DNA from: a virus
Strand: one strand, 5' to 3'
Length of the DNA stretch: 64,000 nt
IMG/VR virus record: IMGVR_UViG_3300045988_054096
Location: 55,944 to 119,943 of that record
The notes below the pieces were generated by a model that saw only the letters and a list, made by a program, of their open reading frames with translations, was not told the origin of the DNA and made no database searches. A program made the position numbers and the translations under genes. Each line of letters opens with the position of its first letter. Positions within the stretch are counted from its first letter, which is position 1. Below, in pieces: positions 27,639 to 62,470 of the stretch.

Positions 27639-27718
27639 TACTGGGACTCAAACCCACACGGGCATTACTGCCCATCAGATTTTAAGTCTGATGCGTCTAC
27701 CAATTCCGCCATCCCAGC
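27639..27718 (-). tRNA. tRNA-Leu (anticodon UAA), type II
   Basis: cloverleaf GCTGGGATGGCGGAATTGGTAGACGC...anticodon loop CTTAAAA...GGGTTTGAGTCCCAGT; long variable arm. Confidence 0.7.
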
Positions 27719-27756
27719 ATAAAGTGCTAAGAATACTCCTAGTACTCAGTAATTTA

Positions 27757-28881
27757 TTAGAATGCAAGACCGCCTCTATACAGCGAAGGTCTGTTCTCCA
27801 AGTTGAGTATCTTGAAGTAATACCTATCACCATCTCCTGTTTCAGTCACAAGAATACCATCTGCAGTAAGAGGTTCAACTACTAAGCCATAACCTCCAAA
27901 CGGGTCTCCGGGTCTTAACAAGTCTGCGGCAGTCATCGAGCTTACTCGTCTACGATAAATATCAAGATCATCTTCATCAAGCGTATATTCTTTACCCTCA
28001 CTGTCCTTATCCTTAGTACCAACCTTAGCCAAAGTATCCCTGAAGATAGCAACAGAGTTTTCTTCACTTGCGTTGTAATAACTATACTGAACAGAATAGG
28101 AATATTGCGCTTGTTCTACGTTTATGAAGTTCTTGAAATCATTGATAGAGCACTTATGAATATTAAGCTCCTCAACTATACTCTTAAGAATGTCAATCGT
28201 AGATATAGCTAAGGAATCAATGAAGGTAAGTACTTCTTGTACTCTACTCTTATCCTCTAGACAATCATTCAAGTACTCCATGATTACGTCTGTGGACAGA
28301 TTTCCAAATGACTTCTTATATCTGATTCTTGAGGGGCGACCAATGAAGTTCTCATTGATGTACAACTTGTTTGTAGTCAAGAGAAAGACTCTCCTATAAG
28401 GACTGTTAAATACACCATCCATTATGGATAGAAGTTCAAGATCATATCCTTTTCCTGTATCAAAATTCTTCTCAAATTCATCAAAGAATAACACACAAGG
28501 ACTGTTAATCTTAGAAATAAAATCAGCAAGTCCAGGATACGGAGCATTAATCAAAATTACAGGAAGCTTAGTTTTATTTGCTATAATTTTAGCAGTAATA
28601 GTTTTACCAGTTCCCTTAACTCTATTGAACAAAATTCCAAGATTGGAAGTTGTGTTCTCGAAGGTAGTCATAATATGTTCTATCAGCTTCGATTCCATAC
28701 CGTAAATCTTGAAATCGAAATGAAATTCATCAGCAAAATCTTCCAAAAAGATTTCATGACGATCGGGATCAAAATTCATAGTGTAAACACGTTTAGGTAA
28801 CTTATCAATTATCTGAATCGTGTCATCAACTTGCTTAAGGACTCTTCCGTTCTTAAGCCAAACAATGTTAGGTGTACTCAT
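27757..28881 (-). CDS. AAA+ ATPase
   Basis: 374 aa; Walker A GTGKT, Walker B VLFFDEFE. Confidence 0.5.
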   Translation of the reverse strand: MSTPNIVWLKNGRVLKQVDDTIQIIDKLPKRVYTMNFDPDRHEIFLEDFADEFHFDFKIYGMESKLIEHIMTTFENTTSNLGILFNRVKGTGKTITAKIIANKTKLPVILINAPYPGLADFISKINSPCVLFFDEFEKNFDTGKGYDLELLSIMDGVFNSPYRRVFLLTTNKLYINENFIGRPSRIRYKKSFGNLSTDVIMEYLNDCLEDKSRVQEVLTFIDSLAISTIDILKSIVEELNIHKCSINDFKNFINVEQAQYSYSVQYSYYNASEENSVAIFRDTLAKVGTKDKDSEGKEYTLDEDDLDIYRRRVSSMTAADLLRPGDPFGGYGLVVEPLTADGILVTETGDGDRYYFKILNLENRPSLYRGGLAF

Positions 28882-28892
28882 TTAAGTTATAT

Positions 28893-29378
28893 TTAGAATA
28901 TACAACACATGGAAGCAATAAAGAACATAATGGAAGTTATACAGCCTATGATCACCCTAGCAGCGGAGGTATCAGTAAAGTCTCCATTGTTTTTCTCGTC
29001 TGTTTCCTTAATTTGGTTCAATACTTTAACCATAATTACAGCAACTGTGATTAATAGGAAGAATCCTACTATAAGTCCAATTATGTCCTTGTACAGGATT
29101 TTCCAAGATAGCATAAAAATAGCAGACTTCCCTAAATTGGACTCTGCTAACTTTATTGTATTGTCACTAATTGCTTTGAATGTCTCATTGACAGCTATTC
29201 CAATTTCGGTTCCTATGCTGGAATCGTCATTGTCATCGCTTACAACAGCATTTTCTCTCACATACTTTTGAGTTTCTTCAGGGAGATTCTTGAAACAATC
29301 CTCTGAAATCGTTACAGTTTCTGCAAACATTCCCACACTACATATCATAGCCATGAAAATAAAAATTAATCTTTTCAT
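28893..29378 (-). CDS. membrane protein with signal peptide
   Basis: 161 aa; N-terminal signal, two C-terminal TM segments. Confidence 0.35.
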   Translation of the reverse strand: MKRLIFIFMAMICSVGMFAETVTISEDCFKNLPEETQKYVRENAVVSDDNDDSSIGTEIGIAVNETFKAISDNTIKLAESNLGKSAIFMLSWKILYKDIIGLIVGFFLLITVAVIMVKVLNQIKETDEKNNGDFTDTSAARVIIGCITSIMFFIASMCCIF

Positions 29379-29400
29379 CTATATTACTATTAAAAGTTTG

Positions 29401-29482
29401 TAGGGCCGGAGGGACTCGAACCCTCACACCCGAAGGCGACAGATCCTAAATCTGTTGCGGCTACCAGTTACGCCACGACCCC
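29401..29482 (-). tRNA. tRNA-Leu (anticodon UAG)
   Basis: GGGGTCGTGGCGTAACTGGTAGCCGC...loop TTTAGGA...GAGGGTTCGAGTCCCTCCGGCCCT. Confidence 0.65.
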
Positions 29483-29644
29483 AAAATTTAGAACACCTTT
29501 GCTAGATTACCTACTTATCTAATCTAACTAAGAGTCAGCTCTCTTTTAACCATCAAAAGAGCAGTAGGAATGTATTAACCTTCAACATCATTGGACTAGT
29601 CCAGCTAGCTATTAACCAACTTAGCTTGATTTATAATGCAAGAG

Positions 29645-29673
29645 AATACTTGCTGCAAGTGTTCTTGTTATGT
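29645..29673 (+). promoter_or_regulatory. variant copy of conserved intergenic motif (ACTTGCTGCAAGTGTTCTTGTTATG)
   Basis: matches consensus aaTTGCTGTnnGTnnTCTTaTta found at 8 other intergenic sites; directly after stop of gene 29681..29971. Confidence 0.3.
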
Positions 29674-29680
29674 CTAGTAA

Positions 29681-30594: not shown

Positions 30595-30706
30595 AATTCA
30601 TATAATTTGTTCAAATATACGAATAATAAATTTCGAATCAAAGTAAGATTACGAATATTTGCTTAAGCTGTTGAACTTAGGAGTAGATATAAGGTCTTAA
30701 ATTTGG

Positions 30707-30781
30707 TACACCCGGTGGGATTCAAACCCACAACCTACGCCTTAGAAGGGCGTTGCTGCTATTCAGTTGAGCTACGGGTGC
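30707..30781 (-). tRNA. tRNA-Arg (anticodon UCU)
   Basis: GCACCCGTAGCTCAACTGAAT...loop CTTCTAA...GTGGGTTTGAATCCCACCGGGTGT. Confidence 0.6.
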
Positions 30782-30883: not shown

Positions 30884-30952
30884 ACTTTTGGGATTCGAAC
30901 CTCTTAATTAGAAATTAAGTGTGCTACCATTACACCACATATCCTATAAAAT
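30884..30952 (-). tRNA. tRNA-like, nominal anticodon UCU, Gln-type D-arm, weak T-stem/acceptor (possible pseudo-tRNA)
   Basis: GGATATGTGGTGTAATGGTAGCACACTTAATTTCTAATTAAGAGGTTCGAATCCC; D-arm identical class to tRNA-Gln and the CUA suppressor; acceptor pairing not found. Confidence 0.3.
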
Positions 30953-33818: not shown

Positions 33819-33984
33819 ATGTTATAGCAAGTTCTTTATCTTGCATCCTAGAGTTTCCCCTAGGTATCGGACTATATCATCATCTACATGAGATGTTGGG
33901 CGCTCGTGGGCACATTATATTCTCCTAATAGAGTTTCAGTGCCTAGTCTCTGAACCTTCTAGAGTTGTTAAGCTCTAGCTCGGC

Positions 33985-34461
33985 TTAGGATTGCCTTGTA
34001 AAATCAGCAACTTTGCAACATAAATTTTTGAAATCAGAGTCGGATAATCCATTTTTCATGATATTAATGGGTTTGTATACCCACTGTACATTTCCAATTT
34101 CATATCCTTTGTCAGAATCAATTCTATCAACTGAAGCATTGGATTCCCCTTTCGGAGTATCTACTACTTGTAGGTCTATACCTGTATAAGCACATTTGAA
34201 GTTTTGCTTCTGCAATACTTTATATAGATCTTCCAAGGTCACACTACAATCAATAATTTTACCTCCACGAATAAGATTATCTTTTATAGAGGATAACCAT
34301 ACAACATGCATTCCGTTTTCATCAAAATAGCCTCTGGACTTTCGCTTATCTGGATAATTATTTTTCCTTCCACACTTTCTACAACATTTAAATTGCATTT
34401 TCTCTAGTTCTGAAAGGCGTTTATAATCAATATTTCCACATCTGCATTGAAATTTTACCAT
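33985..34461 (-). CDS. HNH endonuclease
   Basis: 158 aa; N-terminal Cys cluster, C-terminal ASVDRIDSDKGYEIGNVQWV HNH motif. Confidence 0.5.
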   Translation of the reverse strand: MVKFQCRCGNIDYKRLSELEKMQFKCCRKCGRKNNYPDKRKSRGYFDENGMHVVWLSSIKDNLIRGGKIIDCSVTLEDLYKVLQKQNFKCAYTGIDLQVVDTPKGESNASVDRIDSDKGYEIGNVQWVYKPINIMKNGLSDSDFKNLCCKVADFTRQS

Positions 34462-38404: not shown

Positions 38405-38478
38405 TAAAAGTTTGCACGGGCTGAAGGACTTGAACCCCCGACATTCGGTTTTGGAGACCGACGTTCTAACCAACTGAA
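38405..38478 (-). tRNA. tRNA-Trp (anticodon CCA)
   Basis: GCGGGCTTAGTTCAGTTGGTTAGAAC...loop CTCCAAA...GGGGGTTCAAGTCCTTCAGCCCGT. Confidence 0.65.
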
Positions 38479-38683
38479 CTAAGCCCGCATGAAGCTGGGG
38501 TTTACTTTTACTTCTAACCCCAGCTGTAAAAGAAGGTCGCTACGCCTGACCCACACCCGACGTAGCCTAGGCAATAAAGATACGCTTAATACAAGGGCTA
38601 AACTTACATGTTATTAATAGACTCTAATAACAAAGCCTCGGTGTTACGTTGTACTCACTTGTGCACCAGCAGTACTTCCTATG

Positions 38684-38790
38684 CGGAGGTGGCAGGACTC
38701 GAACCCGCACGCCGTGTTACCGACTACTGGTGGTTTTCCTACTACTCATATGAGTAGCTCGACTATCTCTTTACCATATCATTACTGACT
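38684..38790 (-). other. tRNA-like 3' module (T-arm GCGGGTTCGAGTCCTGC + acceptor-like CACCTCCGCA) preceded by a 16-nt perfect hairpin; no matching 5' acceptor found
   Basis: seen on minus strand; could be a fourth permuted Y-RNA-like element or a tRNA remnant. Confidence 0.2.
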
Positions 38791-38882
38791 TAGGTAGCTG
38801 GTGTATAGTCTGTACACATTTAGGAATTAATTCCACTTAGCTCGGGATTATTATCATTTATAGGGCTGATACCTTCCCCGAA

Positions 38883-39327
38883 TTAGCCAGCTTCTACTTC
38901 AGAAGTTTCCTCCTGAGCACTCGTACCCCAATCTAATGTTACTATATATTTATCCCACTTGTCTGTTAACGTAAGAGTATTCTTAACATTAATAATACTT
39001 GTAGGAATTTCATACATAGTTCCTTCTACCGTCACTATAAATAGTACATCACAACTAGTATTGTCAAATGGTCTAGTTTTAGAAGTTCCAGAAGAACCTC
39101 CACAATTCTTCAATAGGACCTCATAGTTTCCAGATTCTTTTCTAAACTAAGTTGTTTTTACAGATACTCGTAGTAACTTTCCATCTTTATCCACTACTAA
39201 ATCGTATTTTTGGGTATCGTTAAGTGGCAGTAATACAGGAATACAATTAGCAGTATAATATGCTATTGCTCTTCCTAGTCCCACATTACCCTAATGTGAT
39301 TTGTAATTAGATGTCCAAGGATTCATA
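38883..39327 (-). CDS. hypothetical protein, TAG-recoded (2 in-frame TAG)
   Basis: ATG at 39325-39327; MNPWTSNYKSH*GNVGLGRAIAYYTANCIPVLLPLNDTQKYDLVVDKDGKLLRVSVKTT*FRKESGNYEVLLKNCGGSSG... continuous into track ORF 38883..39113; TAA stop. Confidence 0.5.
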
Positions 39328-39376
39328 ACACTAAATTTTTTTTTTAATTTCAAGACCACTCCCTTACCAATTAGGG

Positions 39377-39655
39377 TTACACCTCCAGCTTTAGTACTGA
39401 CTTATTCCACCAGTCTGTTAAGTCTTTAAAAGTAAATCCAAATTCATCTTCAAATTTTTCTTCTGGGACAGATTCAACATTTAGGTTTACTGCCCAGTGC
39501 CAACAAGCCCTCATTTCTTCTTCGTCTATAGGCTTTTCACACAACCATGTATCATCTAGAACCATGTCTAGAAAGACTTCATGTAATTGTTTAAATACAT
39601 TTATTTTCTCAATAGTTTCCATAAGCGGAGAGGCTGGGTTCCGACCCCAATGCAC
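39377..39655 (-). CDS. hypothetical protein
   Basis: 92 aa ORF. Confidence 0.3.
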   Translation of the reverse strand: MHWGRNPASPLMETIEKINVFKQLHEVFLDMVLDDTWLCEKPIDEEEMRACWHWAVNLNVESVPEEKFEDEFGFTFKDLTDWWNKSVLKLEV

Positions 39656-39712
39656 CGAAATGCACGATCAGATTAGCAGTCTGTCCTTGCTCCATTGCAA
39701 GTTGCTCTCTCC
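39626..39712 (-). tRNA. tRNA-Ser-like (anticodon GCU), type II, non-canonical T-loop
   Basis: GGAGAGAGCAACTTGCAATGGAGCAAG...loop CTGCTAA...long variable hairpin GTGCATTTCGGTGCAT...GGGGTCGGAACCC...CCTCTCC. Confidence 0.45.
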
Positions 39713-39973: not shown

Positions 39974-40003
39974 TTTATCTATATTAAAGTGTTAAAGTAC
40001 TTG

Positions 40004-40077
40004 GGTGTTGTACTGGACTCGAACCAGTGACTACAAGTGCCACAAACTTGCGTTCTACCAACTGAACTAATAACACC
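40004..40077 (-). tRNA. tRNA-His (anticodon GUG) with encoded G-1
   Basis: G-GTGTTATTAGTTCAGTTGGTAGAAC...loop TTGTGGC...ACTGGTTCGAGTCCAGTACAACAC-C; extra 5' G pairs with C73. Confidence 0.65.
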
Positions 40078-40083
40078 ATGTGG

Positions 40084-40158
40084 AGGCTAGAGTCAGATTC
40101 GAACTGACGAAACACCGGTTTTGCAGACCGTGGGATTAGACCACTCTCCCATCTAGCC
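40084..40158 (-). tRNA. tRNA-Cys (anticodon GCA), CCA encoded
   Basis: GGCTAGATGGGAGAGTGGTCTAATCCC...loop CTGCAAA...GTCAGTTCGAATCTGACTCTAGCCTCCA. Confidence 0.65.
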
Positions 40159-40646: not shown

Positions 40647-40665
40647 CATAACATACAAGTTAAAG

Positions 40666-41152
40666 TGGAGATGGAGGGAATCGAACCCTCGTCCAAACAA
40701 TCCTTAATAATAAGATAACGTGTGTCTCTATTTTATTTATCAGCTGTTGAGGTTCAGCTTATTTAGTTATATGACACTAACAAACTAGGGCTGACCAGAA
40801 TGTCAACGCTCCACCACCTACTTTTTAACGCTAAAGCAGGAAAACGAGTGTTTGTGGTGAGTCAACCACGCAGGCACACATCCCTTCTGTTTAAAGACAA
40901 TAATAGGAGATTCAGCTCTACTAACCTGTGGCTTTCGAGTTAAGCACAGTGGCTTATATCCTTCTGCTGTACACCTCTTCCGTTTCTAGGTCTCTCCCTG
41001 TAACCCGACTCAACACATCAACAGCTGAGCCAGCTGCTTAGGCAGCCATTCTTACTTCATTGTAGTTTGCATTTATTGTTTTCCTTCGTTTAAAGAGATC
41101 GCGCTCTACACGTCTTATTACCTCGTAATCGTTGTCAATACCAAGCATCCCC
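40666..41152 (-). ncRNA. ssrA: tmRNA (ssrA), ~487 nt, tag peptide ANYNEVRMAA
   Basis: 5' GGGGATGCTTGGTATTGACAACG pairs with 3' CATCTCC-A; 3' end TTTGGACGAGGGTTCGATTCCCTCCATCTCCA closely matches tmRNA consensus GGACG.GGGTTC.A.TCCC.CCA.CTCCA; internal frame GCA AAC TAC AAT GAA GTA AGA ATG GCT GCC TAA (41070 to 41038) followed by hairpin GCAGCTGGCTCAGCTG. Confidence 0.6.
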
Positions 41153-41158: not shown

Positions 41159-41277
41159 CAGAAATCTATTCAACTTGTCTTTTGCTCTGCCAACTGAGCT
41201 ACCTCCTGTTTATAATGTCTAGTCAGGAGGATGAGACTCGAACTCATGACTCAAAGATCCCTTCAATAGCTTTGCTG
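41159..41277 (-). ncRNA. Y-RNA-like (YrlA-like) RNA with permuted tRNA-like domain
   Basis: minus strand 5'-CAGCAAAGCTATT GAAGGGA TCTTT GAGTC ATGAG TTCGAGT CTCAT CCTCCTG A [CTAGACATTATAAA] CAGGAGG TA GCTC AGTTGGCA GAGC A AAAGA CAAGTTG AATAGATTTCTG-3': T-arm + 3' acceptor precede 5' acceptor + D-arm; AAAGA/TCTTT and CAGCAAAGCTATT/AATAGATTTCTG form a long terminal stem with 7x7 internal loop where an anticodon arm would be. Confidence 0.45.
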
Positions 41278-41298
41278 TTAGATTTCTTATTAGTGAAG

Positions 41299-41372
41299 TT
41301 GGGAGAACGGGATTCGAACCCGCAACCTCTACATCCCAAATGTAGTAGACTAGCCTATTGTCCTATCTCCCA
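41299..41372 (-). tRNA. tRNA-Pro (anticodon UGG)
   Basis: TGGGAGATAGGACAATAGGCTAGTCTACTACA TTTGGGA TGTAGAGGTTGCGGGTTCGAATCCCGTTCTCCCA. Confidence 0.6.
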
Positions 41373-41454: not shown

Positions 41455-41470
41455 AAATCAAAAAGGCGAG

Positions 41471-41544
41471 TTGGGTGACTGGGACTTGAACCCAGAACCT
41501 CCTGATTATCAGTCAGGTGCGCTGACCAGTTGCGCCATCACCCA
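41471..41544 (-). tRNA. tRNA-Ile (anticodon GAU)
   Basis: TGGGTGATGGCGCAACTGGTCAGCGCACCTGA CTGATAA TCAGGAGGTTCTGGGTTCAAGTCCCAGTCACCCA. Confidence 0.65.
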
Positions 41545-43539: not shown

Positions 43540-43553
43540 TTAGATATTTCTTG

Positions 43554-43626
43554 AGGCCCCACTCGGATTCGAACCGAGGTTTCAAGATTACAAATCTAGT
43601 GTTCTAACCAACTAAACTATAAGGCC
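43554..43626 (-). tRNA. tRNA-Thr (anticodon UGU)
   Basis: GGCCTTATAGTTTAGTTGGTTAGAACACTAGA TTTGTAA TCTTGAAACCTCGGTTCGAATCCGAGTGGGGCC. Confidence 0.6.
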
Positions 43627-43718
43627 AATTAAGTGAGGAAGAAAAGATTCGAACTTTCAAAACAATCATACCTAGAATTTGATCTGCTTTACCATTTTGC
43701 ATACTTCCTCATTAAGAG

Positions 43719-43791
43719 CGGAGGGTAGGGGACTCGAACCCCTACTCCCAAGATTAGTTATCCTGTGCTTTAACCATTAAGCTAACCCTCC
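43719..43791 (-). tRNA. tRNA with atypical anticodon loop UAACUAA (nominal anticodon ACU with A33; loop contains CUA); identity undetermined
   Basis: otherwise perfect 73-nt cloverleaf GGAGGGTTAGCTTAATGGTTAAAGCACAGGA TAACTAA TCTTGGGAGTAGGGGTTCGAGTCCCCTACCCTCC-G. Confidence 0.45.
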
Positions 43792-44907: not shown

Positions 44908-46650
44908 TTATTTCTTTTTACTTGTTTTACGTTTCGGTTTATTTACTACGACTTGCAATCTGTTCAACAAGTCCTGATCCATTGCAACCATGAAGAGTTC
45001 TTCTGCATTCTTTGGAGTACGTTTCATAGTACCAGTTCCCACGATGAATGCTACGGCTGATGGATCATAGCCAGACATATAGAAGAAGTTTGGAGCATCT
45101 GCAAAGTCTTCAAACTTAACTGCGTTTCCACTACCATAATAGTAATTAGGAATATCCCACATAATTAATTTGAAGTTCTTCACATACTCTTCGCTGAATC
45201 CAGCTTCCTTTAAGCGTCTGATAGCAGTTTGGAAGTTCGTACTGTCATTCCCACTTCCATATCTAGCAGGATTCAACTCCCCATCAGACACAAGAAGCAA
45301 TCCAGTTGGAAAGTCTTCATCCTTAACTCCTCTCTGTTTAAGATTGATAAACAAATCTATAACAGATTGGAAGTTAGTTCCACCATAGGCTTCACATCTA
45401 TCGTTGATATACTTATCAACTGGTGTGTCACCTTTCCACTGATGTAACTTACATTTGTCTGCAAACTCTGCAAATGAGTTGGTAAACGGACCAGTCAAGA
45501 ACTCAGAGAAATACAACGCCATAGATTTGCCTATATCATAAGCTGATACATTACATCCTCTAGCCTTAGAAGTCATAGAAGAGGAAGTATCTCTTACAAC
45601 AAGGAGTCTAGAATTAGTGTTAACTCCTTCCTTACCAGTCTTTACAAGCTGTGCAAACTGTGCATTGATTGTGTTCTCCTTATAGTCCTCAATGTGGTAA
45701 CAATTATAGCCACTACCAAGAGGAGTGAACAATTCAAATACAAAGCCTGTATACTTCGCAACTGGTTTAGACTGTATCCACTTAGAATACTTCTCAGTAA
45801 GATTGTGATTCTTCAGGAACTCAGAACCAACGAGAATAGCCAATGCTCTACCAGCAATATGATCGAAGTTAATCTTATCATACAACTGTTGAGAAATCAG
45901 CTGTTGCCATTGGTGAGCTTTTCCCTCAGATTTCATCTTACGATAAGCCTTATAAGCAGACTCTTTCTCCAAATCTGGAGAGAACTTACGAGCTATCCAT
46001 CTACCAATTAAGGTATCAGCCTGAGACTCCACAGTCTTACAGTTCTTGTTAGTACGGATAGCAGGCATATACTTTCTTACCAAGTGAGTAGTCTCTGGAT
46101 TTGTGAATCCAGCAGCTATTACAAGGAAGAAGAAATTCCAATCAAGCTTTCTGCCTTCCCACCCATGATACTGTAAGTCAAGGGATAACATCTGGAAGAC
46201 ATCTTTCCAAGAACCAGCGGCAACGAAGTATGCAAAGTTTGCTTTGAACGTCTTCGGTTGGTTGATAGCCAACCACAACATTCTCATAATGCCTTCGTTC
46301 TTCAAACCCTGTCCTCTCTGTACTTCCAACTCTTCGATAGAACCATCATCCTTTACTACCTTTGACTTACGAGTAATCAATCTGATATACACTGCAAGTT
46401 TCAGACACAACTTCGGATCAAGGCTCCAGAGCAACTCCATGTCCTTTGCTACTTCCTTATAAGAGCGAGGCTCTTTAAAGTATGATATGGCAGCGAAGTT
46501 ATCTACAAAGTCATTGCCAGAAGTGTTGTACTTCTTAGCTCCATTTCCAGATTGGACTACAGAAGTTTCCTTCATCCCTTCTTTCAGAAATTGATTTTCA
46601 GTTCCCTTGTTGGTATCCATAAGGGAACTAAGTTTCTTTTCAAATACCAT
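44908..46650 (-). CDS. rsr: Ro60/Rsr ortholog (TROVE-like helical N-terminal region + C-terminal von Willebrand A domain)
   Basis: 580 aa; vWA MIDAS DTSSSM, GGTNF, LLLVSDGE, and C-terminal MSGYDPSAVAFIVG closely parallels Ro60 DVSASM...GGTDCS...MCGFDTGALDVI; no in-frame TAG. Confidence 0.5.
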   Translation of the reverse strand: MVFEKKLSSLMDTNKGTENQFLKEGMKETSVVQSGNGAKKYNTSGNDFVDNFAAISYFKEPRSYKEVAKDMELLWSLDPKLCLKLAVYIRLITRKSKVVKDDGSIEELEVQRGQGLKNEGIMRMLWLAINQPKTFKANFAYFVAAGSWKDVFQMLSLDLQYHGWEGRKLDWNFFFLVIAAGFTNPETTHLVRKYMPAIRTNKNCKTVESQADTLIGRWIARKFSPDLEKESAYKAYRKMKSEGKAHQWQQLISQQLYDKINFDHIAGRALAILVGSEFLKNHNLTEKYSKWIQSKPVAKYTGFVFELFTPLGSGYNCYHIEDYKENTINAQFAQLVKTGKEGVNTNSRLLVVRDTSSSMTSKARGCNVSAYDIGKSMALYFSEFLTGPFTNSFAEFADKCKLHQWKGDTPVDKYINDRCEAYGGTNFQSVIDLFINLKQRGVKDEDFPTGLLLVSDGELNPARYGSGNDSTNFQTAIRRLKEAGFSEEYVKNFKLIMWDIPNYYYGSGNAVKFEDFADAPNFFYMSGYDPSAVAFIVGTGTMKRTPKNAEELFMVAMDQDLLNRLQVVVNKPKRKTSKKK

Positions 46651-47033: not shown

Positions 47034-47206
47034 GAAAAAAGTTTAATTAATAATGAGTTAATCTACAAATCTTACAACGTAGAAGGATAGTATCCATTTG
47101 GATACATCTTGGCATACGCTTCGAAATACCACTTTGCAATCTTTTTCAAATACTTCAACATACAATTTAGTTTAGTTAATATCAATTTTATCTACAAATC
47201 TAAAAG

Positions 47207-47279
47207 TTGCGGGAGTGGGAGTCGAACCCACGACCATCGGCTTATGAGACCGCTAAGCTACCACTGCTAACATCCCGCA
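47207..47279 (-). tRNA. tRNA-Met/Ile2 (anticodon CAU), elongator-type
   Basis: GCGGGATGTTAGCAGTGGTAGCT...loop CTCATAA...GTGGGTTCGACTCCCACTCCCGC. Confidence 0.5.
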
Positions 47280-47455: not shown

Positions 47456-47520
47456 CGGTGCATACGGGAATCGAACCCGTGATAGACAGTCACGTATCCT
47501 AGCCGTTAGACCAATGCACC
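47456..47520 (-). tRNA. short (65 nt) tRNA-Asp-like (anticodon GUC); anticodon stem and T-stem share nucleotides, possibly atypical or degenerate
   Basis: GGTGCATTGGTCTAACGGCTAGGATA CGTGA CTGTCTA TCACG GGTTCGATTCCCGTATGCACC-G. Confidence 0.35.
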
Positions 47521-48800: not shown

Positions 48801-48819
48801 AATCTTAAATTTGCTTTAG

Positions 48820-48892
<73 letters not shown>

Positions 48893-48899
48893 ATGTTAG

Positions 48900-48974
48900 T
48901 ACTCCCTGATAGATTCGAACTATCGACCTTTACCTTGTAAGGGTATTGCTCTGAACCAACTGAGCTAAGAGAGT
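48900..48974 (-). tRNA. tRNA-Val (anticodon UAC)
   Basis: ACTCTCTTAGCTCAGTTGGTTCAGAGCAATACC CTTACAA GGTAAAGGTCGATAGTTCGAATCTATCAGGGAGT. Confidence 0.6.
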
Positions 48975-48978
48975 ATAG

Positions 48979-49051
48979 TGCCTCCAGAAGGACTCGAACC
49001 TTCAGTCCACGGTTTAAGAGACCGTTGCTTTAACCAATTCAGCTATAGGGG
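48979..49051 (-). tRNA. tRNA-Lys (anticodon CUU)
   Basis: GCCCCTATAGCTGAATTGGTTAAAGCAACGGT CTCTTAA ACCGTGGACTGAAGGTTCGAGTCCTTCTGGAGGC. Confidence 0.6.
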
Positions 49052-49060
49052 CAATGCTTG

Positions 49061-49131
49061 TTCTCCCACTAGGAGTCGGACCTAGGTCTCAGAATTAAAA
49101 GTTCTGAGCTCTACCGTTGAGCTATGGGAGA
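49061..49131 (-). tRNA. tRNA-Lys (anticodon UUU)
   Basis: TCTCCCATAGCTCAACGGTAGAGCTCAGAA CTTTTAA TTCTGAGACCTAGGTCCGACTCCTAGTGGGAGA. Confidence 0.6.
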
Positions 49132-49599
49132 GAGAGTGTTCCCAGTCTAAAAGCCGTGGCTAATAGGTGGGAACTAGCATATATGCTAGAACTGCCTAGG
49201 AAGGCAGTAAAGGAAGAAAAGAGAGACTAGCTTGTGTAGGCTTACCTCTACCATACATAGTCTTAGTCTCTGTCACTACATAAAGTAGCCTGTACTCGTT
49301 ACATAAATGAGTGAGCCAACTCCAGCAGTTTCTTGTTGAAACTCTTTCAAAGTCACCAGTTTATAGATTACTGGAAACTGAGGTACTTTACTAAAGTGAG
49401 AATACATGAACCTTGTTAGTCTCAAGGTCCTCGTTCACCTGAGCTGCTATTCGCATAGCATCACCGATTTTATCAAATGTTGTAGCCCTGTTAGGGTTAC
49501 TTACAATAATGATTTCTCCGTCTTGTCCTTGCCTTATAAAGGCTTTAGGACTAATCTTTAAAATGTACATATTCTTCTATTTTTAGGTTAATATTGTGT

Positions 49600-49677
49600 A
49601 CTGGTGGAAGGACTTGAACCTTCGACCTTGATGGTATAAGCATCCTGCGCTAACCGACTGCGCCACACAGTGTAGAC
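49600..49677 (-). tRNA. tRNA-like with anticodon UAU (Ile?), imperfect acceptor
   Basis: CACTGTGTGGCGCAGTCGGTTAGCGCAGGATG CTTATAC CATCAAGGTCGAAGGTTCAAGTCCTTCCACCAGT. Confidence 0.35.
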
Positions 49678-51078: not shown

Positions 51079-51133
51079 TCTAAAAATGCATTTTTAATTG
51101 TTAATAAATAGAATCTATTTGCTACATCCAAAG

Positions 51134-51205
51134 TTGGAGCAAGAGGACTCGAACCTCTACTGTAAGATTCAAAATCTTATGTGCTAACCATTACACCATG
51201 CTCCA
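51134..51205 (-). tRNA. tRNA-Gln (anticodon UUG)
   Basis: TGGAGCATGGTGTAATGGTTAGCACATAAGA TTTTGAA TCTTACAGTAGAGGTTCGAGTCCTCTTGCTCCA. Confidence 0.65.
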
Positions 51206-52032: not shown

Positions 52033-52041
52033 AAGTTTTAG

Positions 52042-52125
52042 TGGGAGAGGTAGGACTCGAACCTACAGTCCTCGAAAGGAGCGGATTTACAGTCCGCACG
52101 GCTACCAATTACCGGTTACTCTCCC
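52042..52125 (-). tRNA. tRNA-Tyr (anticodon GUA), type II
   Basis: GGGAGAGTAACCGGTAATTGGTAGCCGTGCGGA CTGTAAA TCCGCTCCTTTCGAGGACTGTAGGTTCGAGTCCTACCTCTCCC. Confidence 0.65.
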
Positions 52126-52779: not shown

Positions 52780-53099
52780 ATTATTTAATCTTTTGGGTTA
52801 TCAAAGATAATCCAAAGTAATCCTACAGCTTTGACTAGAAGAGCTGCCTACTGCAAGATCTAGCATATAATAGGTACTACGTTCTGTACTGAACTATATG
52901 ATAGAATTACTTTGGTGATAGTTTTAGGCTAGAAACTAACAAACCTACTCAATCAAAAAGATGGAACCTGTGCGTTTCGCTATACCATCATTACTCTGCA
53001 TCACGTCCACAGGCGACGCTATGGCATATCCCCAATTTTCCATAGTGGTGCTCAGACAGTTTTAGGCCGCAACCTAAGAACTGTGGTGGGTAGCACGAG

Positions 53100-53175
53100 T
53101 GGGAGCTGACTGAATCGAACAGATCGCCTAGGGTTTTTCAGACCCTCGTGCAATAACCATCTACACCAAGCTCCC
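53100..53175 (-). tRNA. tRNA-Phe (anticodon GAA)
   Basis: GGGAGCTTGGTGTAGATGGTTATTGCACGAGGGT CTGAAAA ACCCTAGGCGATCTGTTCGATTCAGTCAGCTCCC; weak T-stem. Confidence 0.5.
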
Positions 53176-53259
53176 TTAAAGACTTACTATCTTCACAGAC
53201 TGTAAGCCAAATAGTTACAAAACAATTTCATGCCAAACAATTCATCAATCGGAAAGAGT

Positions 53260-53331
53260 GGACCGTGTGGGACTCGAACCCCGACTTCAGCTTGCAAAGC
53301 TAACGTGTTAGCCAATTACACTACACAGCCC
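53260..53331 (-). tRNA. tRNA-Ala (anticodon UGC)
   Basis: GGGCTGTGTAGTGTAATTGGCTAACACGTTAGC TTTGCAA GCTGAAGTCGGGGTTCGAGTCCCACACGGTCC. Confidence 0.5.
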
Positions 53332-53549: not shown

Positions 53550-53644
53550 ACAGAAAATCAGATATGTATTCATTTAAAGTGCTCTAAACCAGCTGAGCTA
53601 TACCCGACGAATCGGATAGCAGGATTCGAACCTACGACCCCTTG
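53550..53644 (-). ncRNA. Y-RNA-like RNA with permuted tRNA-like domain (second copy)
   Basis: minus strand: TTCATTAATG...GTAGG TTCGAAT CCTGC TATCCGA T [TCG] TCGGGTA TA GCTC AGCTGGTTTA GAGC A CTTTAAATGAA; 3' tRNA half precedes 5' half with 3-4 nt linker; termini TTCATT/AATGAA pair. Confidence 0.4.
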
Positions 53645-53663
53645 CTTGGAAGGCATTAATGAA

Positions 53664-54075: not shown

Positions 54076-54456
54076 TTAATTCTTCGATAAGCTCCTTTCT
54101 ACCCATGTTGATGATTTAGTTTTTACTGGCTTGGTTTCAACAAGATTTACAAACCGGCATTCAAGCATTTTCACACCAGTTTCTACAAACTCTACATCCC
54201 ACCCTCTGTATCCACTATCTCCAATAATCTTTACGGGAGTTCCAGCAGGATATATAATCATCTCATTAAAATTGTTAGGAGTTTTATACCATTCCTTTGG
54301 CTCTCCTAAATAAACAATATCTCCAATCTTCATTTTGATATAATTTTTACATTTTGCGCACGCTACTGGATTCGAACCAGTGATGGGGCTTTTGCCACGG
54401 CAGATTAACAGTCTGCTGCCTTCGTCCACTCGGCCAAACGTACAGAATGCTACCAA
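54076..54456 (-). CDS. hypothetical protein
   Basis: 126 aa ORF; note 3' region overlaps tRNA at 54357..54443 so true start is probably downstream. Confidence 0.2.
   Translation of the reverse strand: MVAFCTFGRVDEGSRLLICRGKSPITGSNPVACAKCKNYIKMKIGDIVYLGEPKEWYKTPNNFNEMIIYPAGTPVKIIGDSGYRGWDVEFVETGVKMLECRFVNLVETKPVKTKSSTWVERSLSKN
54357..54443 (-). tRNA. type II (long variable arm, Ser-like GCC...GGC D-arm) tRNA carrying anticodon GUU (Asn codons)
   Basis: GTACGTTTGGCCGAGTGGACGAAGGCAGCAGA CTGTTAA TCTGCCGTGGCAAAAGCCCCATCACTGGTTCGAATCCAGTAGCGTGC-G; perfect anticodon stem. Confidence 0.45.
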
Positions 54457-54624
54457 TTAATCAAGATGATCCCAACATCTATTCAGATTAATTGTAGCCG
54501 AGCCATTTTATTCTAGTAAAAATGACTAAACACCTAAGACTCTATCACCTCAAGTCTTACAGAGGTACAGAATTAGCAGTATGTAAACCCGGCAGCTTAT
54601 CGCATAGCCCTTGCGTGGGAATAG

Positions 54625-54696
54625 TAGTGCTACTGAGAATCGAACTCAGATTTCTACCTTGAGAGGGCAGTTACCTAACCGTTAGTAGATAGCACC
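54625..54696 (-). tRNA. tRNA-Glu (anticodon CUC)
   Basis: GGTGCTATCTACTAACGGTTAGGTAACTGCC CTCTCAA GGTAGAAATCTGAGTTCGATTCTCAGTAGCACT. Confidence 0.5.
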
Positions 54697-55042: not shown

Positions 55043-55066
55043 TAATTCAAAAAGTCATGTTTTTGA

Positions 55067-55138
55067 GCGGGGATAACGGACTCGAACCGTCGCCTCAACC
55101 TTGGAAGGGTTTTATGCTACCACTAACACCAATCCCGC
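55067..55138 (-). tRNA. tRNA-Gly (anticodon UCC)
   Basis: GCGGGATTGGTGTTAGTGGTAGCATAAAACC CTTCCAA GGTTGAGGCGACGGTTCGAGTCCGTTATCCCCGC. Confidence 0.5.
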
Positions 55139-55445
55139 GAAAGATTTCAATGCAAAAGTAGTAATAACTCCAGAAACTCCAAATCTAGATTATGTTAATT
55201 TTTGTAAAATCTCTAATCTATTGGTTTTCAGTAATTATTACTACTCTATGCTCAGTATTCCACATAAGGTGGATTGTTATCATCAGAATCATGCTTCTCA
55301 CACAGCCACCAGATGAATGCAGTGGCTAAGATAAAGAGTATTGTTACATACATACTTTTAATTTTTCGTTACAGAAAACAAAGATAGTAATAGATCTGGA
55401 TTGCTCCAAAAATATTACTATCTAAGTTGTTATTTTAGGGTGTAT

Positions 55446-55865: not shown

Positions 55866-56251
55866 AACTCGGCAGTGTTCAAAAGGTTGTACAGTGTGTT
55901 CTTCAAACTCTCAACGATTACCTCGTCGTTAAGCTGCCGACCTTGGAACTTGTCCAAAATGGCATTACGAATGCCCTTTCTCTTTGCCATTTCCTTGTCA
56001 TATTCAGCCTTTCTCTTTGCCATTTCCTTGTCATATTCAGCCTTTCGCGCATCATACAGAACTTTCTCTTTCTTCCTGTCCTCCTTCTGAAGATTGATGT
56101 ATGTTTTCTCTGGCTCTACAGGAGTGCCTGGAAGAACAACATCACAAAGTCCATAGTTCTTATTGGCTTGAACTTGTACTTTGTAGGGAGAAAAGCCATT
56201 CTTGTTGTTTGTAACTTTAAGATTCAAAACGATAGATTTTGCTCCTATCAT
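55862..56251 (-). CDS. hypothetical protein with internal duplicated peptide KEMAKRKAEYDKEMAKRK
   Basis: 129 aa ORF spanning the 33-bp tandem repeat. Confidence 0.3.
   Translation of the reverse strand: MIGAKSIVLNLKVTNNKNGFSPYKVQVQANKNYGLCDVVLPGTPVEPEKTYINLQKEDRKKEKVLYDARKAEYDKEMAKRKAEYDKEMAKRKGIRNAILDKFQGRQLNDEVIVESLKNTLYNLLNTAEL
55978..56043. repeat. perfect 33-bp tandem duplication (TTCTCTTTGCCATTTCCTTGTCATATTCAGCCT x2)
   Basis: two identical adjacent copies 55978-56010 and 56011-56043 inside a coding region. Confidence 0.8.
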
Positions 56252-56379
56252 AGCTATTTACCCTCTAGCAGGATTTATTAGTGCTAGAATTAAATTCCGT
56301 TTACTTTCCTCCGGCAACGTCAACTAAGTTTAACCACGTGTTACTGGTCTTCGCACGAGCTTAGCAAAGGTTAAAATAG

Positions 56380-56465
56380 TGAGAGTGAGACGAGTCGAAC
56401 GTCTCTTTGAGAATCAAACTCCATAGTATTATCCGAGTATAGTCACTAGTAAACTATACACTCCC
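56380..56465 (-). tRNA. tRNA-like, type II length (86 nt), anticodon arm not resolved
   Basis: GGGAGTG TA TAGTTTACTAGTGACTAT...variable hairpin TTTGATTCTCAAA...AGACGTTCGACTCGTCT CACTCTC; good acceptor/T-arm. Confidence 0.35.
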
Positions 56466-56530
56466 TTGATGGCTACAGCTTCGCATTCTGTAGCCTTACC
56501 CAAAATTGGGATTCATGGTTGCAATTGTAG

Positions 56531-56605
56531 TAGGGAGTGTTGGATTTGAACCAGCATCACTACATTATGGACCTGATAGTATGTTCACCATTACACCAAC
56601 TCCCA
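56531..56605 (-). tRNA. tRNA-like, anticodon arm not resolved
   Basis: TGGGAGTTGGTGTAATGGTGAACAT...GCTGGTTCAAATCCAACACTCCCT; acceptor and T-arm present. Confidence 0.3.
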
Positions 56606-58090: not shown

Positions 58091-58119
58091 TGTTCTGGGT
58101 TTTAAATGTTAATAATTAG

Positions 58120-58191
58120 TACCTCTACCAAGAGTCGAACTTGGATCTTATGATTCGTAGTCATACATTCTATCCATTGAACTATAGAGGC
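58120..58191 (-). tRNA. tRNA-Arg (anticodon ACG)
   Basis: GCCTCTATAGTTCAATGGATAGAATGTATGA CTACGAA TCATAAGATCCAAGTTCGACTCTTGGTAGAGGT. Confidence 0.6.
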
Positions 58192-60648: not shown

Positions 60649-60718
60649 AATGTGTAAATGTTAGGAGTGAATGAATAAAAGAGCAGTTTAACGACTTGCT
60701 TAGGTCGGTGGAATTAGA

Positions 60719-61174
60719 TTATTCCATGAAGTTCAGTTCCACAAGGAAGCTGGCAACAGTCCGACCGTCTTTGGTCAGCGATGCGTAAGGCACGCGATTG
60801 ACGACGACCTTCTTGTCCTTGCAGCCATCCACAATGGCTTGCAGGATTTCCCCATTGGTGTTGTGTGCAGCAATCTGCTCACGACAGAACTTGTTGAAAG
60901 TTCCGTCAGGAGTAACTACCGTACCGTCTGCCTTAACACGGCTGCGAAGCACAGTGCTAAGGAACAGACTGCCCACACTAGTGGTCAGCACAGGATTGAG
61001 GTAGGCATCTTTCGACACCTTGCCGTCCATCTCGGCTTTCTCGTAAGAGAAGCCCGAAACGGTGAATTGCACATTGTGCTGGAATGGAGAGTTGCCCCGC
61101 TTGATGCTTGTAGAAGCGTTAGCGGTTTGAACTTCGTTTGCCTCGGCTGTCTGGAAACCAGTAAGTCTTGCCAT
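60719..61174 (-). CDS. hypothetical protein encoded in a GC-rich (about 50 percent) island
   Basis: 151 aa ORF; local composition sharply different from the ~33 percent GC of the rest of the window; no TAG. Confidence 0.35.
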   Translation of the reverse strand: MARLTGFQTAEANEVQTANASTSIKRGNSPFQHNVQFTVSGFSYEKAEMDGKVSKDAYLNPVLTTSVGSLFLSTVLRSRVKADGTVVTPDGTFNKFCREQIAAHNTNGEILQAIVDGCKDKKVVVNRVPYASLTKDGRTVASFLVELNFME

Positions 61175-61423
61175 AATGTAAAGTGTTAGGTCTGTGGTTG
61201 CAGTTAGTGAACCACCAAGTTTAGCCCATTTGCTTTGAAACAGGCAAAGTCGTGCAGTAGCTTAACGTCCGACTGCAAACGGGACGCTACTCGAAGCCGC
61301 TGACGACGAGGACGAGCTGACAGTGCTCGATTCGATATATGTATATATATCTATATAATTATAGTTGTATATATAGGATAGGTTTTATATTTATAGTGTC
61401 ATAAAATTTTCGAAGAAAATTTT

Positions 61424-61440
61424 TATATTTGGCTAGGTTA
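61424..61440. repeat. direct repeat TATATTTGGCTAGGTTA (copy 2)
   Basis: matches 60324-60340 and 60297-60312; adjacent AT-rich TATATA low-complexity stretch 61318-61400. Confidence 0.6.
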
Positions 61441-61666
61441 TAATCATTTTCATTTTCCATTTGAGACCCCGGAGGGGGTGAAAATGGTAGTGTACTCCCC
61501 CGTATATAACATTCTAAAAATTTTATTTATAGAATATTATTCAGCCAATATATAATCTCTACCTTACTGTATATAGAGAATCCTATCTTAAATTCGGAGA
61601 CAAATAATACATTTCATCCGGAGTCATATTATTATCATACATTTCTTTTACCAATGGAATAATTCT

Positions 61667-62002
61667 CTAACGAATTTCGTTTTTATTAGTAAAGTATTGG
61701 TAATCCAATTCACTTTCCAAACCCATAGGGGAGGGGGATTTTAATATCTTATCATTTAAATATTCTACTACATGGAACTCACTTTGATTATATTGTCTAT
61801 GTCCGAACTCGTGCATAATAACATTCTCTATGTGAGAATCGTTTGATTGTTCTCTATTCATATTAATGTTAAGAGCTATGGTTTCTCTCTTAGATATTCC
61901 TTTCTTACTAGTTACATCATCAAACAACTTAAATACATTATCATCTTTAATAGATGTAGTAGCTCCAAGTATTCTGTCTAATTCTATTGGATCATATTCC
62001 AA
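61667..62002 (-). CDS. HEXXH zinc-metallopeptidase-like protein (ImmA/IrrE-like?); apparent TTG start, possibly fused by frameshift with upstream ORF 62003..62158
   Basis: 111 aa with HEFGH motif; upstream 50-codon ORF ends TGA overlapping. Confidence 0.35.
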   Translation of the reverse strand: MEYDPIELDRILGATTSIKDDNVFKLFDDVTSKKGISKRETIALNINMNREQSNDSHIENVIMHEFGHRQYNQSEFHVVEYLNDKILKSPSPMGLESELDYQYFTNKNEIR

Positions 62003-62157
62003 TCCTTCTTCTTCTAAATCTATTTACCCAGAAATCACTATAATAGAATCGTTCTACACTTTCTAGAACTTCATCTAGTCTGCCTCCTAAGTAGCTAGAT
62101 ACCTCCTTATAAGTATCAATACATTGTGGTCTTGAAATAAGTTTATTTAGTTCCATA

Positions 62158-62194
62158 ACAAAAAAAAATGCTAGCCAATAATCTGACTAGCATT
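62158..62194 (-). terminator. rho-independent terminator
   Basis: hairpin ATGCTAGTCAGATTATTGGCTAGCAT followed by T9 on minus strand (plus-strand A-run 62159-62168); downstream of the suppressor tRNA. Confidence 0.5.
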
Positions 62195-62400
62195 TGCTCT
62201 CTAATTTTAATACGCATCAGTACTTAACCGATAGTTCATTTATCTTATCTAACCAATCTAGTACAAATTGCTCATTTTGCAGTTTAGCTTTTTCAATTTG
62301 ACTCATCAATTCCTCTAACATTCCAATAGACAGTTGGCACATATTCCAAAGTCTATTCTTTTCATTTGCATAAATCATAATGTCATAAAAGTATAAGTTA

Positions 62401-62470
62401 GTCCTCCCCCAAGGATTCGAACCCTGACCAAGTGGGTTAGAGCCACCTGTGCTACCATTACACCAGAGGA
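62401..62470 (-). tRNA. amber suppressor tRNA (anticodon CUA), Gln-like body
   Basis: TCCTCTGGTGTAATGGTAGCACAGGTGG CTCTAAC CCACTTGGTCAGGGTTCGAATCCTTGGGGGAGGA-C; perfect anticodon stem, loop C-U-CUA-A-C; D-arm GGTGTAATGGTAGCAC shared with tRNA-Gln(UUG) at 51134-51205. Confidence 0.65.

Follow-up and report, generated by a model that had tools for sequence, protein, structure and literature searches.

We examined a 64,000-nucleotide stretch of viral DNA (positions 55,944 to 119,943 of IMG/VR record IMGVR_UViG_3300045988_054096; hereafter the window, whose positions serve as coordinates throughout) that carries a large tRNA gene array. Within this array lies a type II tRNA gene with the anticodon GUU (54356..54443, minus strand) that belongs to a maintained, covarying and almost phage-restricted family and is not a mutated tRNA-Ser(GCU). 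Judging from sequence and gene order, it is most likely the phage's tRNA-Asn, built on a class II scaffold and charged via its anticodon, where we infer the amino acid. Full-text literature searches returned no account of class II tRNAs with an Asn anticodon that recur in phages and are restricted to them, and such a class appears to be undescribed. The array as a whole is of a known kind, large phage tRNA arrays with suppressors and transfer-messenger RNA (tmRNA) being well documented.

ARAGORN called 26 tRNAs and one tmRNA between 27632 and 62472, all on the minus strand, with zero calls on the plus strand and zero tRNA calls in five shuffles of the window. The Rfam model RF00005 at its gathering score supports 24 of the 26 tRNAs; a tRNA-Phe at 53099-53175 was missed and a tRNA-Leu(UAA) reached just 38.2 bits. 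Rfam alone adds 49599-49671 (49.9 bits), 47456-47520 (39.0 bits) and 30890-30944 (35.4 bits). A further tRNA-Ser(UGA) at 38683-39386, interrupted by 613 nt, was found using the intron mode of ARAGORN. It is the sole intron-mode call that we retained, because it is backed by Rfam and by an intronless allele; the other such calls, obtained at lowered thresholds, were spurious long introns, for example an 'Asn' at 55067-56605 that fuses halves of two genes. Taken together, these calls bear out the about 30 minus-strand tRNA or tRNA-like genes counted in an initial annotation of this DNA.

We propose that the region makes up the translation module of a human-gut phage of approximately 170 kb, some of whose genes would be read with TAG as glutamine. 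About 24 working tRNAs and the type II GUU tRNA would together serve 19 of the 20 amino acids (Asp excepted) as well as initiation. The module would additionally comprise two canonical amber suppressors, a one-piece tmRNA, several decaying tRNA genes and two Y-RNA-like tRNA mimics near a Ro60-like protein. Taken as a whole, with TAG as glutamine, the type II GUU gene as tRNA-Asn and the decayed genes as by-products, we consider this explanation reasonably likely. A 170,612-bp human-gut scaffold in ENA codes for a protein identical in every residue to one of the window, and homologs of the Ro-like marker protein number more than 1,800, many of them located on contigs 145-180 kb long. When 12 kb were compared with deposited phages by Megablast, only short tRNA matches came back. 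Fetched loci of relatives and other phages are designated by L-numbers (L104, L283 etc.).

A covarying family of long-armed tRNAs with anticodon GUU

The gene at 54356-54443 folds into an 88-nt type II cloverleaf with the anticodon loop CUGUUAA, an 18-nt variable region holding a 4-bp stem, G73 and a U2.G71 pair, and it occupies the tRNA-Asn slot of the array. It is called by ARAGORN and passes the RF00005 gathering score (51.5 versus 29 bits), which confirms the Ser-like type II tRNA with a GUU anticodon previously noted at 54357-54443. By ARAGORN, it is the only Asn decoder found in the window. The gene resembles bacterial tRNA-Ser(GCU) in its D arm (GGCCGAGUGG..AAGGC), long variable arm, G73, C11-G24 and a CUGNUAA loop with U36 and A37, and differs from it in the GUU anticodon, the U2.G71 and C4-G69 pairs of the acceptor stem and its position in the Asn slot.

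Further members were collected using a pattern that combines a Ser-type D arm with the loop CUGUUAA, so that the Ser-type D arm is present in all members by construction. Matches were found on 30 IMG/VR contigs, many of 100-435 kb, and every match was an 85-91-nt ARAGORN tRNA(GUU) within a tRNA array. The same pattern gave 10 matches in 185,579 bacterial and archaeal species genomes (one genome each), all in metagenome-assembled genomes; four of the ten could be called as tRNAs, three of these in phage-like arrays. Alignment of the 27 distinct sequences of the class showed 97.2% of cells to be paired, compared with 37-46% for slid controls, with double changes in 19 of 24 pairs. The covariation score was 0.71 as opposed to 0.21 for shuffles, none of which reached 0.71 in 500 trials. 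Helix 4, which forms the long variable arm, covaries as well, and the anticodon loop is invariant. Because covariation is this strong over 27 distinct sequences, the GUU tRNA represents a maintained gene family.

The acceptor stem of the class departs from that of phage tRNA-Ser. At position 2:71, U-A is found in 14, C-G in 7, G-C in 4 and U.G in 2 of the 27 members, and R4-Y69 is likewise present in just 4, while G73 and GUU are found in all of them. In the window allele, U2.G71 and C4-G69 take the place of the G2-C71 and R4-Y69 pairs read by seryl-tRNA synthetase (SerRS), whereas 15 of 16 phage tRNA-Ser genes from the same loci begin with GG. Other Ser determinants, namely G73, C72, C11-G24 and G30-C40, are present at 54356-54443. 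Counts of NNU anticodons on Ser-like type II scaffolds were 95 for GCU, 16 for ACU, 6 for GUU, 2 for GAU and 1 for UUU, making GUU the most frequent non-Ser anticodon. With its 7-bp acceptor and 5-bp T stem, the gene does not show the 8/4 or 9/3 split of allo-tRNAs, and its 88 nt and long arm set it apart from the type I body of tRNA-Asn with a 4-5-nt variable loop. The identity set of asparaginyl-tRNA synthetase (AsnRS), G34, U35, U36 and G73, is found in the window allele and in 27 of 27 members.

The reverse swap, type I tRNAs with Ser anticodons, turned up in just 5 doubtful cases among 124 Ser calls. The cultured jumbo phage Xanthomonas phage Xoo-sp13 (L297; MN047793.1 45778-51839) carries an unannotated 11-tRNA array that includes an 87-nt tRNA(GUU) with a 15-nt variable hairpin and also an 89-nt tRNA-Cys. 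With U73, a D arm of type I and a 3-bp variable hairpin, this tRNA(GUU) was placed outside the class.

Amino acid identity of the GUU tRNA

In bacteria, the Ser identity set consists of G73, C72, G2-C71, R4-Y69, C11-G24, a large variable region and G30-C40, and the Asn set of the anticodon and G73, which is transplantable (PMC9976931). Gene order is informative as well. Relatives fetched via the marker protein conserve the tRNA order Gly-Glu-[x]-Ala-Phe, in which slot x is filled by the type II GUU gene in the window and in L283 and by a canonical 73-76-nt tRNA-Asn(GUU) in L286/L287, L288, L291 and L293/L294. The Ser(GCU) slot, located between His and Ser(UGA), holds a degenerate remnant of its own in the window. 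AAU and AAC (AAY) codons are found at the invariant Asn of the ribonucleotide reductase motifs NPC.E, EPNF and TIN.P and make up 5.5% of phage codons (55 per 1000). Since the SerRS determinants of the acceptor stem are mostly lost, the Asn slot is occupied and AAY codons are both common and placed at conserved Asn residues, the type II GUU gene is most likely a tRNA-Asn. We envisage that a Ser(GCU)-like scaffold, keeping G73, a D arm of the Ser type and a long variable arm, had its anticodon changed to GUU and lost the SerRS determinants of its acceptor stem. AsnRS, reading GUU and G73, would charge the tRNA and Asn would be inserted at AAU and AAC.

The same four observations disfavour the suggestion of the initial annotation that the gene could cause Ser- or Leu-type misincorporation or be a further recoding device. 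In the form that we considered, SerRS, which is blind to the anticodon, would serylate the type II GUU tRNA and Ser would be placed at Asn codons. This could be deliberate mistranslation, for example to harm the host proteome or to diversify proteins, or an ambiguous decoding of these codons as Ser or Asn. Natural mistranslating tRNAs exist, for example the tRNAProA family of bacteria (PMC10404621), the CUG-Ser tRNA of Candida and Ser-identity allo-tRNAs (PMC5389517), and they share with the GUU class an anticodon and a body from different isoacceptor families. In those cases the amino acid matching the body is inserted, as shown or argued, whereas here the acceptor departs from Ser identity, the gene is syntenic with tRNA-Asn and the branch is 7/5 instead of the 8/4 or 9/3 of allo-tRNAs. 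The long variable arm, G73, C72, C11-G24 and G30-C40 have been retained, which speaks for serylation, as does the Ser-type D arm, itself a product of the search pattern, and canonical tRNA-Asn is also present in 11 of 30 arrays. However, G2-C71 and R4-Y69 have each been lost in 23 of 27 members and are kept by phage tRNA-Ser, mistranslation would act through the sole Asn decoder of the window array on 5.5% of codons including those for catalytic Asn residues, and the gene swaps with type I tRNA-Asn at one array slot. We therefore regard Ser insertion as unlikely. Equally, both this gene and one with the loop UAACUAA (43718..43791) might be functionless pseudogenes that arose by point mutation of Ser(GCU) and of another tRNA. 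The array does hold decayed genes (the 65-nt tRNA-Asp, tRNA-Leu(UAA), the UAU gene and those at 56530 and 30890) alongside an Asp/Met chimera in L104, and the UAACUAA loop lacks U33. Against this stand the covariation and invariant loop of the GUU class over 27 distinct sequences, which already largely refute the idea for GUU, the separate remnant in the Ser(GCU) slot, and the perfect cloverleaf of the UAACUAA gene with compensatory acceptor- and T-stem changes in five relatives, so that we give a pseudogene origin very little credence.

Several points weigh against the tRNA-Asn reading and the module as proposed. The long variable arm, C72, C11-G24 and G30-C40 are all SerRS determinants that have been kept, and 4 of 27 class members keep G2-C71; with the long arm and a number of core determinants still in place, some serylation of the type II GUU tRNA may occur. 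The identity rules stem from E. coli and Thermus and may differ in the phage's own host. As 11 of 30 type II GUU arrays also carry a canonical tRNA-Asn, the type II form may not merely be a replacement and may have an extra role. Further, coverage of all 20 amino acids fails in this strain, where the sole Asp gene is a deletion allele, and expression of the array genes is predicted from sequence.

Long arms are also found on other phage tRNAs. We pooled 1,181 distinct tRNAs from all fetched loci, a biased sample because the loci were gathered via the GUU and other patterns. When Ser, Leu, Tyr and GUU are set aside, a long arm is seen in 32 of 340 tRNAs with U36 anticodons and in 6 of 498 with others (Fisher p=2e-8), with shares of 10/57 for Lys UUU, 7/58 for Thr UGU, 7/15 for Ile UAU and 5/89 for Met. 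Examples are a Thr(UGU) at L286:11850-11935, an Ile(UAU) at L286:7474-7563, a Lys at L005:5169-5259 and an initiator Met at L004:3785-3869. The U36 bias could reflect either descent from Ser(GCU)-type scaffolds or selection of the arm on readers of ANN codons. The tRNAs for Lys, Asn and Thr are targets of PARIS and of known anticodon nucleases, and infection can be rescued by tRNAs that the phage supplies. A tentative hypothesis for why the arm exists, compatible with Asn identity, is that it lets phage tRNAs reading ANN codons (Asn, Lys, Thr, Ile, Met) dodge host tRNA-targeting nucleases and yet remain substrates of synthetases that recognise the anticodon. The concentration of long arms on U36 tRNAs would fit this, although the locus sample is biased by the way it was collected and the bias may simply follow from Ser(GCU) scaffolds sharing U36.

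The identity of the GUU tRNA matters for annotation, where the label could be Asn, Ser or pseudogene. The class is also a natural experiment on tRNA discrimination by SerRS and AsnRS that bears on the phage-host arms race over tRNAs, and a natural scaffold for orthogonal tRNAs in synthetic biology.

Suppressor tRNAs and the reading of TAG

Most genes of the window are free of TAG and end with TAA or TGA, TAA being the main stop codon of these phages, while a subset contains many in-frame TAGs. The TAG-rich genes are mainly mobile endonucleases together with a few small genes. In the gene at 50632-51093, three in-frame TAGs are kept across relatives, with codon 71 alternating with CAG or CAA, and when paralogous endonucleases are aligned, TAG falls opposite the Q of an NG.QH motif. 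Based on this alternation and alignment, TAG most likely encodes Gln, as in code-15 gut phages. DUF723-type endonuclease genes at 49891-50635 and 23232-24014 contain 9-11 in-frame TAG codons; the former is split over two frames around 50237-50385, which could represent a frameshift, a pseudogene or a programmed event.

Two amber suppressor tRNAs are encoded on the minus strand. In both, U33 is followed by CUA in positions 34-36, and the genome contains in-frame TAG codons read as sense. The suppressor at 43633..43710 (ARAGORN) has the loop UUCUAGG and a 6-bp anticodon stem with an A.A mismatch and is 98-100% conserved in L104, L105, L106, L108 and L292. The suppressor at 62401..62472 (ARAGORN; Rfam, 53.3 bits) has the loop CUCUAAC and the same D arm as the phage's tRNA-Gln. 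A nearest-relative search gave no isotype assignment for either. Once the array is expressed, these suppressors would allow TAG-containing genes to be read.

The code-15 gut phages (preprint 10.1101/2021.08.26.457843; PMC9523058) likewise show TAG in a gene subset, TAG/CAG/CAA alternation and CUA suppressors, whereas here most genes are TAG-free and two, possibly three, suppressor-type tRNAs are present. Zeta crAss-like gut phages carry about 26 tRNA genes with CTA/TCA suppressor tRNAs (PMC12386605) and share with this phage a block of about two dozen or more tRNA genes near replication genes, a CUA suppressor, homing endonucleases, a size of approximately 150-180 kb and the human gut as habitat. 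The Ro60/Y RNA pair, the type II GUU tRNA and the intron-split tRNA-Ser set the present array apart from them.

The possible third suppressor is the tRNA at 43718..43791 (minus strand; ARAGORN and Rfam, 58.8 bits), for which the perfect cloverleaf and the UAACUAA loop with A33 described earlier were reproduced. Its nominal anticodon is ACU; CUA lies at positions 35-37 and position 33 is A, unlike in a canonical suppressor. In five close relatives, an ortholog lies in the same place beside the same CUA suppressor and Thr(UGU), with the loop UAAUUAA, A33 kept and compensatory changes in the acceptor and T stems. Because of this conservation we regard the gene as maintained. The window differs from the orthologs by a single U-to-C change in the loop, which converts AUU to ACU in the canonical register and UUA to CUA one base further 3'. 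AUU and ACU would both carry A34 although their codon boxes are split, which is hard to rationalise.

It is conceivable, if doubtful, that the gene is a suppressor-type tRNA whose triplet, CUA here and UUA in relatives, is displaced one position 3' in an AA-NUA-A loop. The sole loop difference relative to the five orthologs is the C/U at what would be the wobble base of NUA, and the gene adjoins a CUA suppressor. The unrelated pair L052 (AACUAAC) and L234 (AAUUAAC) shows the same switch with A33 and NUA in the canonical register, and L112 has the loop AAUUAAU. A33 is found in 3 of 14 distinct suppressors compared with 13 of 1085 other tRNAs (p=8e-4). On the other hand, the triplet of the window family is out of register (35-37), leaving one nucleotide on its 3' side, the UUA version would read TAA, the main stop of these phages, U32 and A38 could pair to leave a 5-nt loop, and acceptor identity varies, with G3.U70 in L106 and L108 and A3-U70 elsewhere. 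A speculative wider reading is that phages evolved class II ANN tRNAs of their own, chiefly for Asn and in addition for Lys, Thr, Ile and Met, in which tRNAs charged via the anticodon retain a Ser-type arm that evades defence nucleases (or marks the tRNAs for phage factors), together with an A33 AA-NUA-A suppressor design that includes the displaced UAACUAA.

The A33 suppressors lie at L052:2618-2695, L234:1432-1509 and L112:18468-18539. Suppressor tRNAs of the UUA (ochre) type are encoded at L112:2187-2257 and 18468-18539 and at L030:6337-6409; since more distant relatives as well as other phages have them, the wider group may not be uniform in its use of stop codons. A scan of viral sequences for TAATTAA loops returned mostly tmRNA 3' ends, with L234 as the sole informative match. 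Besides the window gene, the corresponding scan for TAACTAA loops yielded a single 7-nt loop, in L100, as well as four loops of 9 nt in which the anticodon is Val(AAC).

Further elements of the array

The tRNA-Ser(UGA) gene (38683..39386, minus strand) is interrupted between U34 and G35 by a 613-nt mobile group I intron (38739-39351) that matches Rfam RF00028 at 38742-38945 with 61.1 bits against a threshold of 50 bits. Once the 613 nt are taken out, the sequence equals the intronless L105 allele exactly, and the intron boundaries show U at position -1 and a terminal G. Intron-plus and intron-minus alleles coexist among close relatives, the intron being present in L104 and L108 and absent from L105, L106 and L044. 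An open reading frame (ORF) within the intron (38883..39326, minus strand) encodes a PD-(D/E)XK homing endonuclease (Pfam PDDEXK_5, 1.7e-14; PDB 2OST, 9e-5) with in-frame TAGs at 39293 and 39149, both of which are conserved in L104 and L108. PDB 2OST was deposited as 'putative endonuclease' and is I-Ssp6803I, the endonuclease of a group I intron in a cyanobacterial tRNA-fMet. Both systems share a group I intron in the anticodon loop that encodes a PDDEXK_5 endonuclease. They differ in the host gene, which here is a phage tRNA-Ser(UGA), in the insertion between U34 and G35 and in the two recoded TAGs of the ORF. A weak second group I intron match (33847-34125; 31.7 bits, gathering score 50) overlaps an endonuclease VII/HNH ORF at 33985-34461 and may be another intron, in a protein-coding gene.

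The tmRNA (40665..41152, minus strand) is a 488-nt one-piece molecule that matches Rfam RF00023 with 97.2 bits over model positions 1-374 and carries the alanine identity pair G3.U70 in its acceptor. Its tag frame, GCA AAC TAC AAT GAA GTA AGA ATG GCT GCC TAA near nt 81-113, encodes ANYNEVRMAA*, and the tag ANYNEVRMAA was called by ARAGORN in L104, L106 and L291. The tag given by ARAGORN for the window, VQQKDISHCA, was rejected in favour of this canonical frame. We also rejected a two-piece tmRNA, as the Rfam tmRNA_permuted matches (48.4 bits here, 58.6 in L044) fuse a YrlA-like element with the 5' part of the one-piece tmRNA.

The two YrlA-like Y RNAs lie at 41159..41273, with compensatory changes in L044, L283 and L288, and at 53551..53663, with a syntenic ortholog in L286 that shows compensatory changes (both minus strand). 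Each is a circularly permuted tRNA-like element composed of a T arm, a closed acceptor hairpin, a D arm and a terminal stem, flanked by the conserved motifs AACAGCAA on the 5' side and UCUGAU on the 3' side. Each scores 33.8 bits with the Rfam YrlA model (RF02553), below its gathering score of 69; the tRNA-like modules align to the model while the terminal stems, which form the Ro-binding helix region, align poorly.

The elements are encoded 3.6 kb and 6.9 kb from the gene of a highly divergent protein with a predicted Ro60 fold (44908..46650, minus strand), comprising a TROVE-like helical ring and a von Willebrand factor A (vWA) domain with a metal-ion-dependent adhesion site (MIDAS) motif. 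A single-sequence search of PDB with this protein gave no match, and profile and fold searches were needed. It matches phrog_850 'RNA-binding protein' of PHROGs (2.8e-33), and the family profile matches RO60 in PDB (5e-4). The AF2 model (predicted local distance difference test score 87.5, predicted template modelling score 0.88) was used with Foldseek, and the top 11 PDB matches were all Ro60, Rsr or TROVE proteins, including Ro60 of phage phiLo, with alignments that span nearly the whole protein (507-619 columns, E 9e-8 to 2.5e-5). D354, S356 and S358 are invariant in the family. In Pfam, the protein matches DUF2828 and DUF7788 only and not the TROVE domain, and vWA_Ro60 is matched in 6 of 54 relatives. 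In bacteria and mycobacteriophages, YrlA is found next to Ro60 (PMC4201824), and the present elements share with these a permuted tRNA-like module, a terminal helix and a nearby Ro60-fold gene. In contrast to the known pairs, they fall below the gathering score, their Ro-binding helix is not recognisably conserved and two copies lie inside a gut-phage tRNA array.

The remaining intact tRNA genes, all on the minus strand, were called by ARAGORN. Those also matched by Rfam encode tRNA-Leu(UAG) (29400..29482; 51.2 bits), Arg(UCU) (30704..30781), Trp(CCA) (38414..38488), Pro(UGG) (41298..41372), Ile(GAU) (41470..41544), Thr(UGU) (43553..43626), a tRNA(CAU) of the elongator Met or Ile2 type (47206..47279; 34.7 bits), Val(UAC) (48899..48974), Lys(CUU) (48978..49052), Lys(UUU) (49060..49131), Gln(UUG) (51133..51205), a type II Tyr(GUA) (52041..52125), Ala(UGC) (53258..53331), Glu(CUC) (54624..54696), Gly(UCC) (55065..55138) and Arg(ACG) (58119..58191). 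Three special features proposed earlier hold up: tRNA-His(GUG) (40003..40077) has a genomically encoded G-1 facing C73, tRNA-Cys(GCA) (40081..40158) encodes its CCA, as does Arg(UCU), and the initiator tRNA-fMet (48819..48892) combines the C1.A72 mismatch with three G-C pairs in the anticodon stem (GGG/CCC). The tRNA-Phe(GAA) at 53099..53175, called by ARAGORN only, is irregular, with a 6-bp anticodon stem and an A.C in the T stem, yet it is conserved and identical in L104.

Damaged genes are likewise found on the minus strand. The type II tRNA-Leu(UAA) at 27632..27719 (ARAGORN with two acceptor mismatches; Rfam, 38.2 bits) is defective by alignment with other phage Leu(UAA) genes: a deletion of approximately 6 nt has collapsed the 3' strands of its T and acceptor stems, so that UCCCAG serves either stem. 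The tRNA-Asp(GUC) at 47456..47520 (Rfam, 39.0 bits) is, as had been noted, 65 nt long; 7 nt between ACGG repeats, spanning the variable region, have been lost from a gene that normally has 73 nt. L292, L283 and L110 carry full-length versions, and the identical deletion is found in the independent assembly L105. The tRNA-Asp loop of this lineage, CUGUCUA, has U37 instead of the usual purine, also in the full-length alleles of L110, L283 and L292. In L104 (5639-5705), the Asp position holds a chimera of a tRNA-Asp 5' part and a tRNA-Met 3' part, which provides evidence that adjacent tRNA genes have recombined at the T arm they share. The tRNA-Ile(UAU)-like gene at 49599..49671 (Rfam, 49.9 bits; missed by ARAGORN) indeed has the UAU anticodon read earlier, in a CUUAUAC loop that it shares with phage tRNA-Ile(UAU) along with G27.A43, and has a 1-nt register defect in the acceptor; the corresponding gene of relatives is a canonical Ile(UAU). 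The syntenic Ser(GCU) slot is occupied by a degenerate type II tRNA that resembles Ser(GCU) (39625..39712) and was called by ARAGORN at -ps80 only, with no Rfam match at E<=1.

Three elements had been listed as tRNA-like with unclear anticodon arms. Two are tRNA-like with defective arms: a CAU-type tRNA at 56530..56605 (Rfam, 39.7 bits) has decayed to a 4-bp anticodon stem with a 12-nt loop and U1.U72, its ortholog in L106 showing UUCAUAA in the loop region, and a remnant at 30884..30952 (Rfam, 35.4 bits at 30890-30944; folding) retains a D arm, a UCU-type anticodon hairpin and a partial T arm and has no 3' acceptor strand. The third, at 56380..56465, folds into an acceptor stem and T arm only; it was called neither by ARAGORN at default settings nor by Rfam (E<=1) and has no homolog in the fetched loci. 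The initial annotation had allowed that its unusual tRNAs might turn out to have canonical anticodons or to be pseudogenes. This is what we found for the 65-nt Asp gene, the UAU gene and those at 56530 and 30890, and not for the conserved GUU and UAACUAA genes. The damaged copies (Asp, Leu(UAA), UAU, 56530 and 30890) would have arisen as by-products when repeated tRNA genes recombined and underwent deletions.

An amidoligase-type gene cluster (34653-37660; GATase_6/7, COOH-NH2 ligase and amidoligase) lies amid the tRNA blocks and is conserved in relatives. In an unrelated phage contig from IMG/VR, a RAGATH-34 RNA match of 119.8 bits (L023:13810-13917) adjoins the tRNA array.

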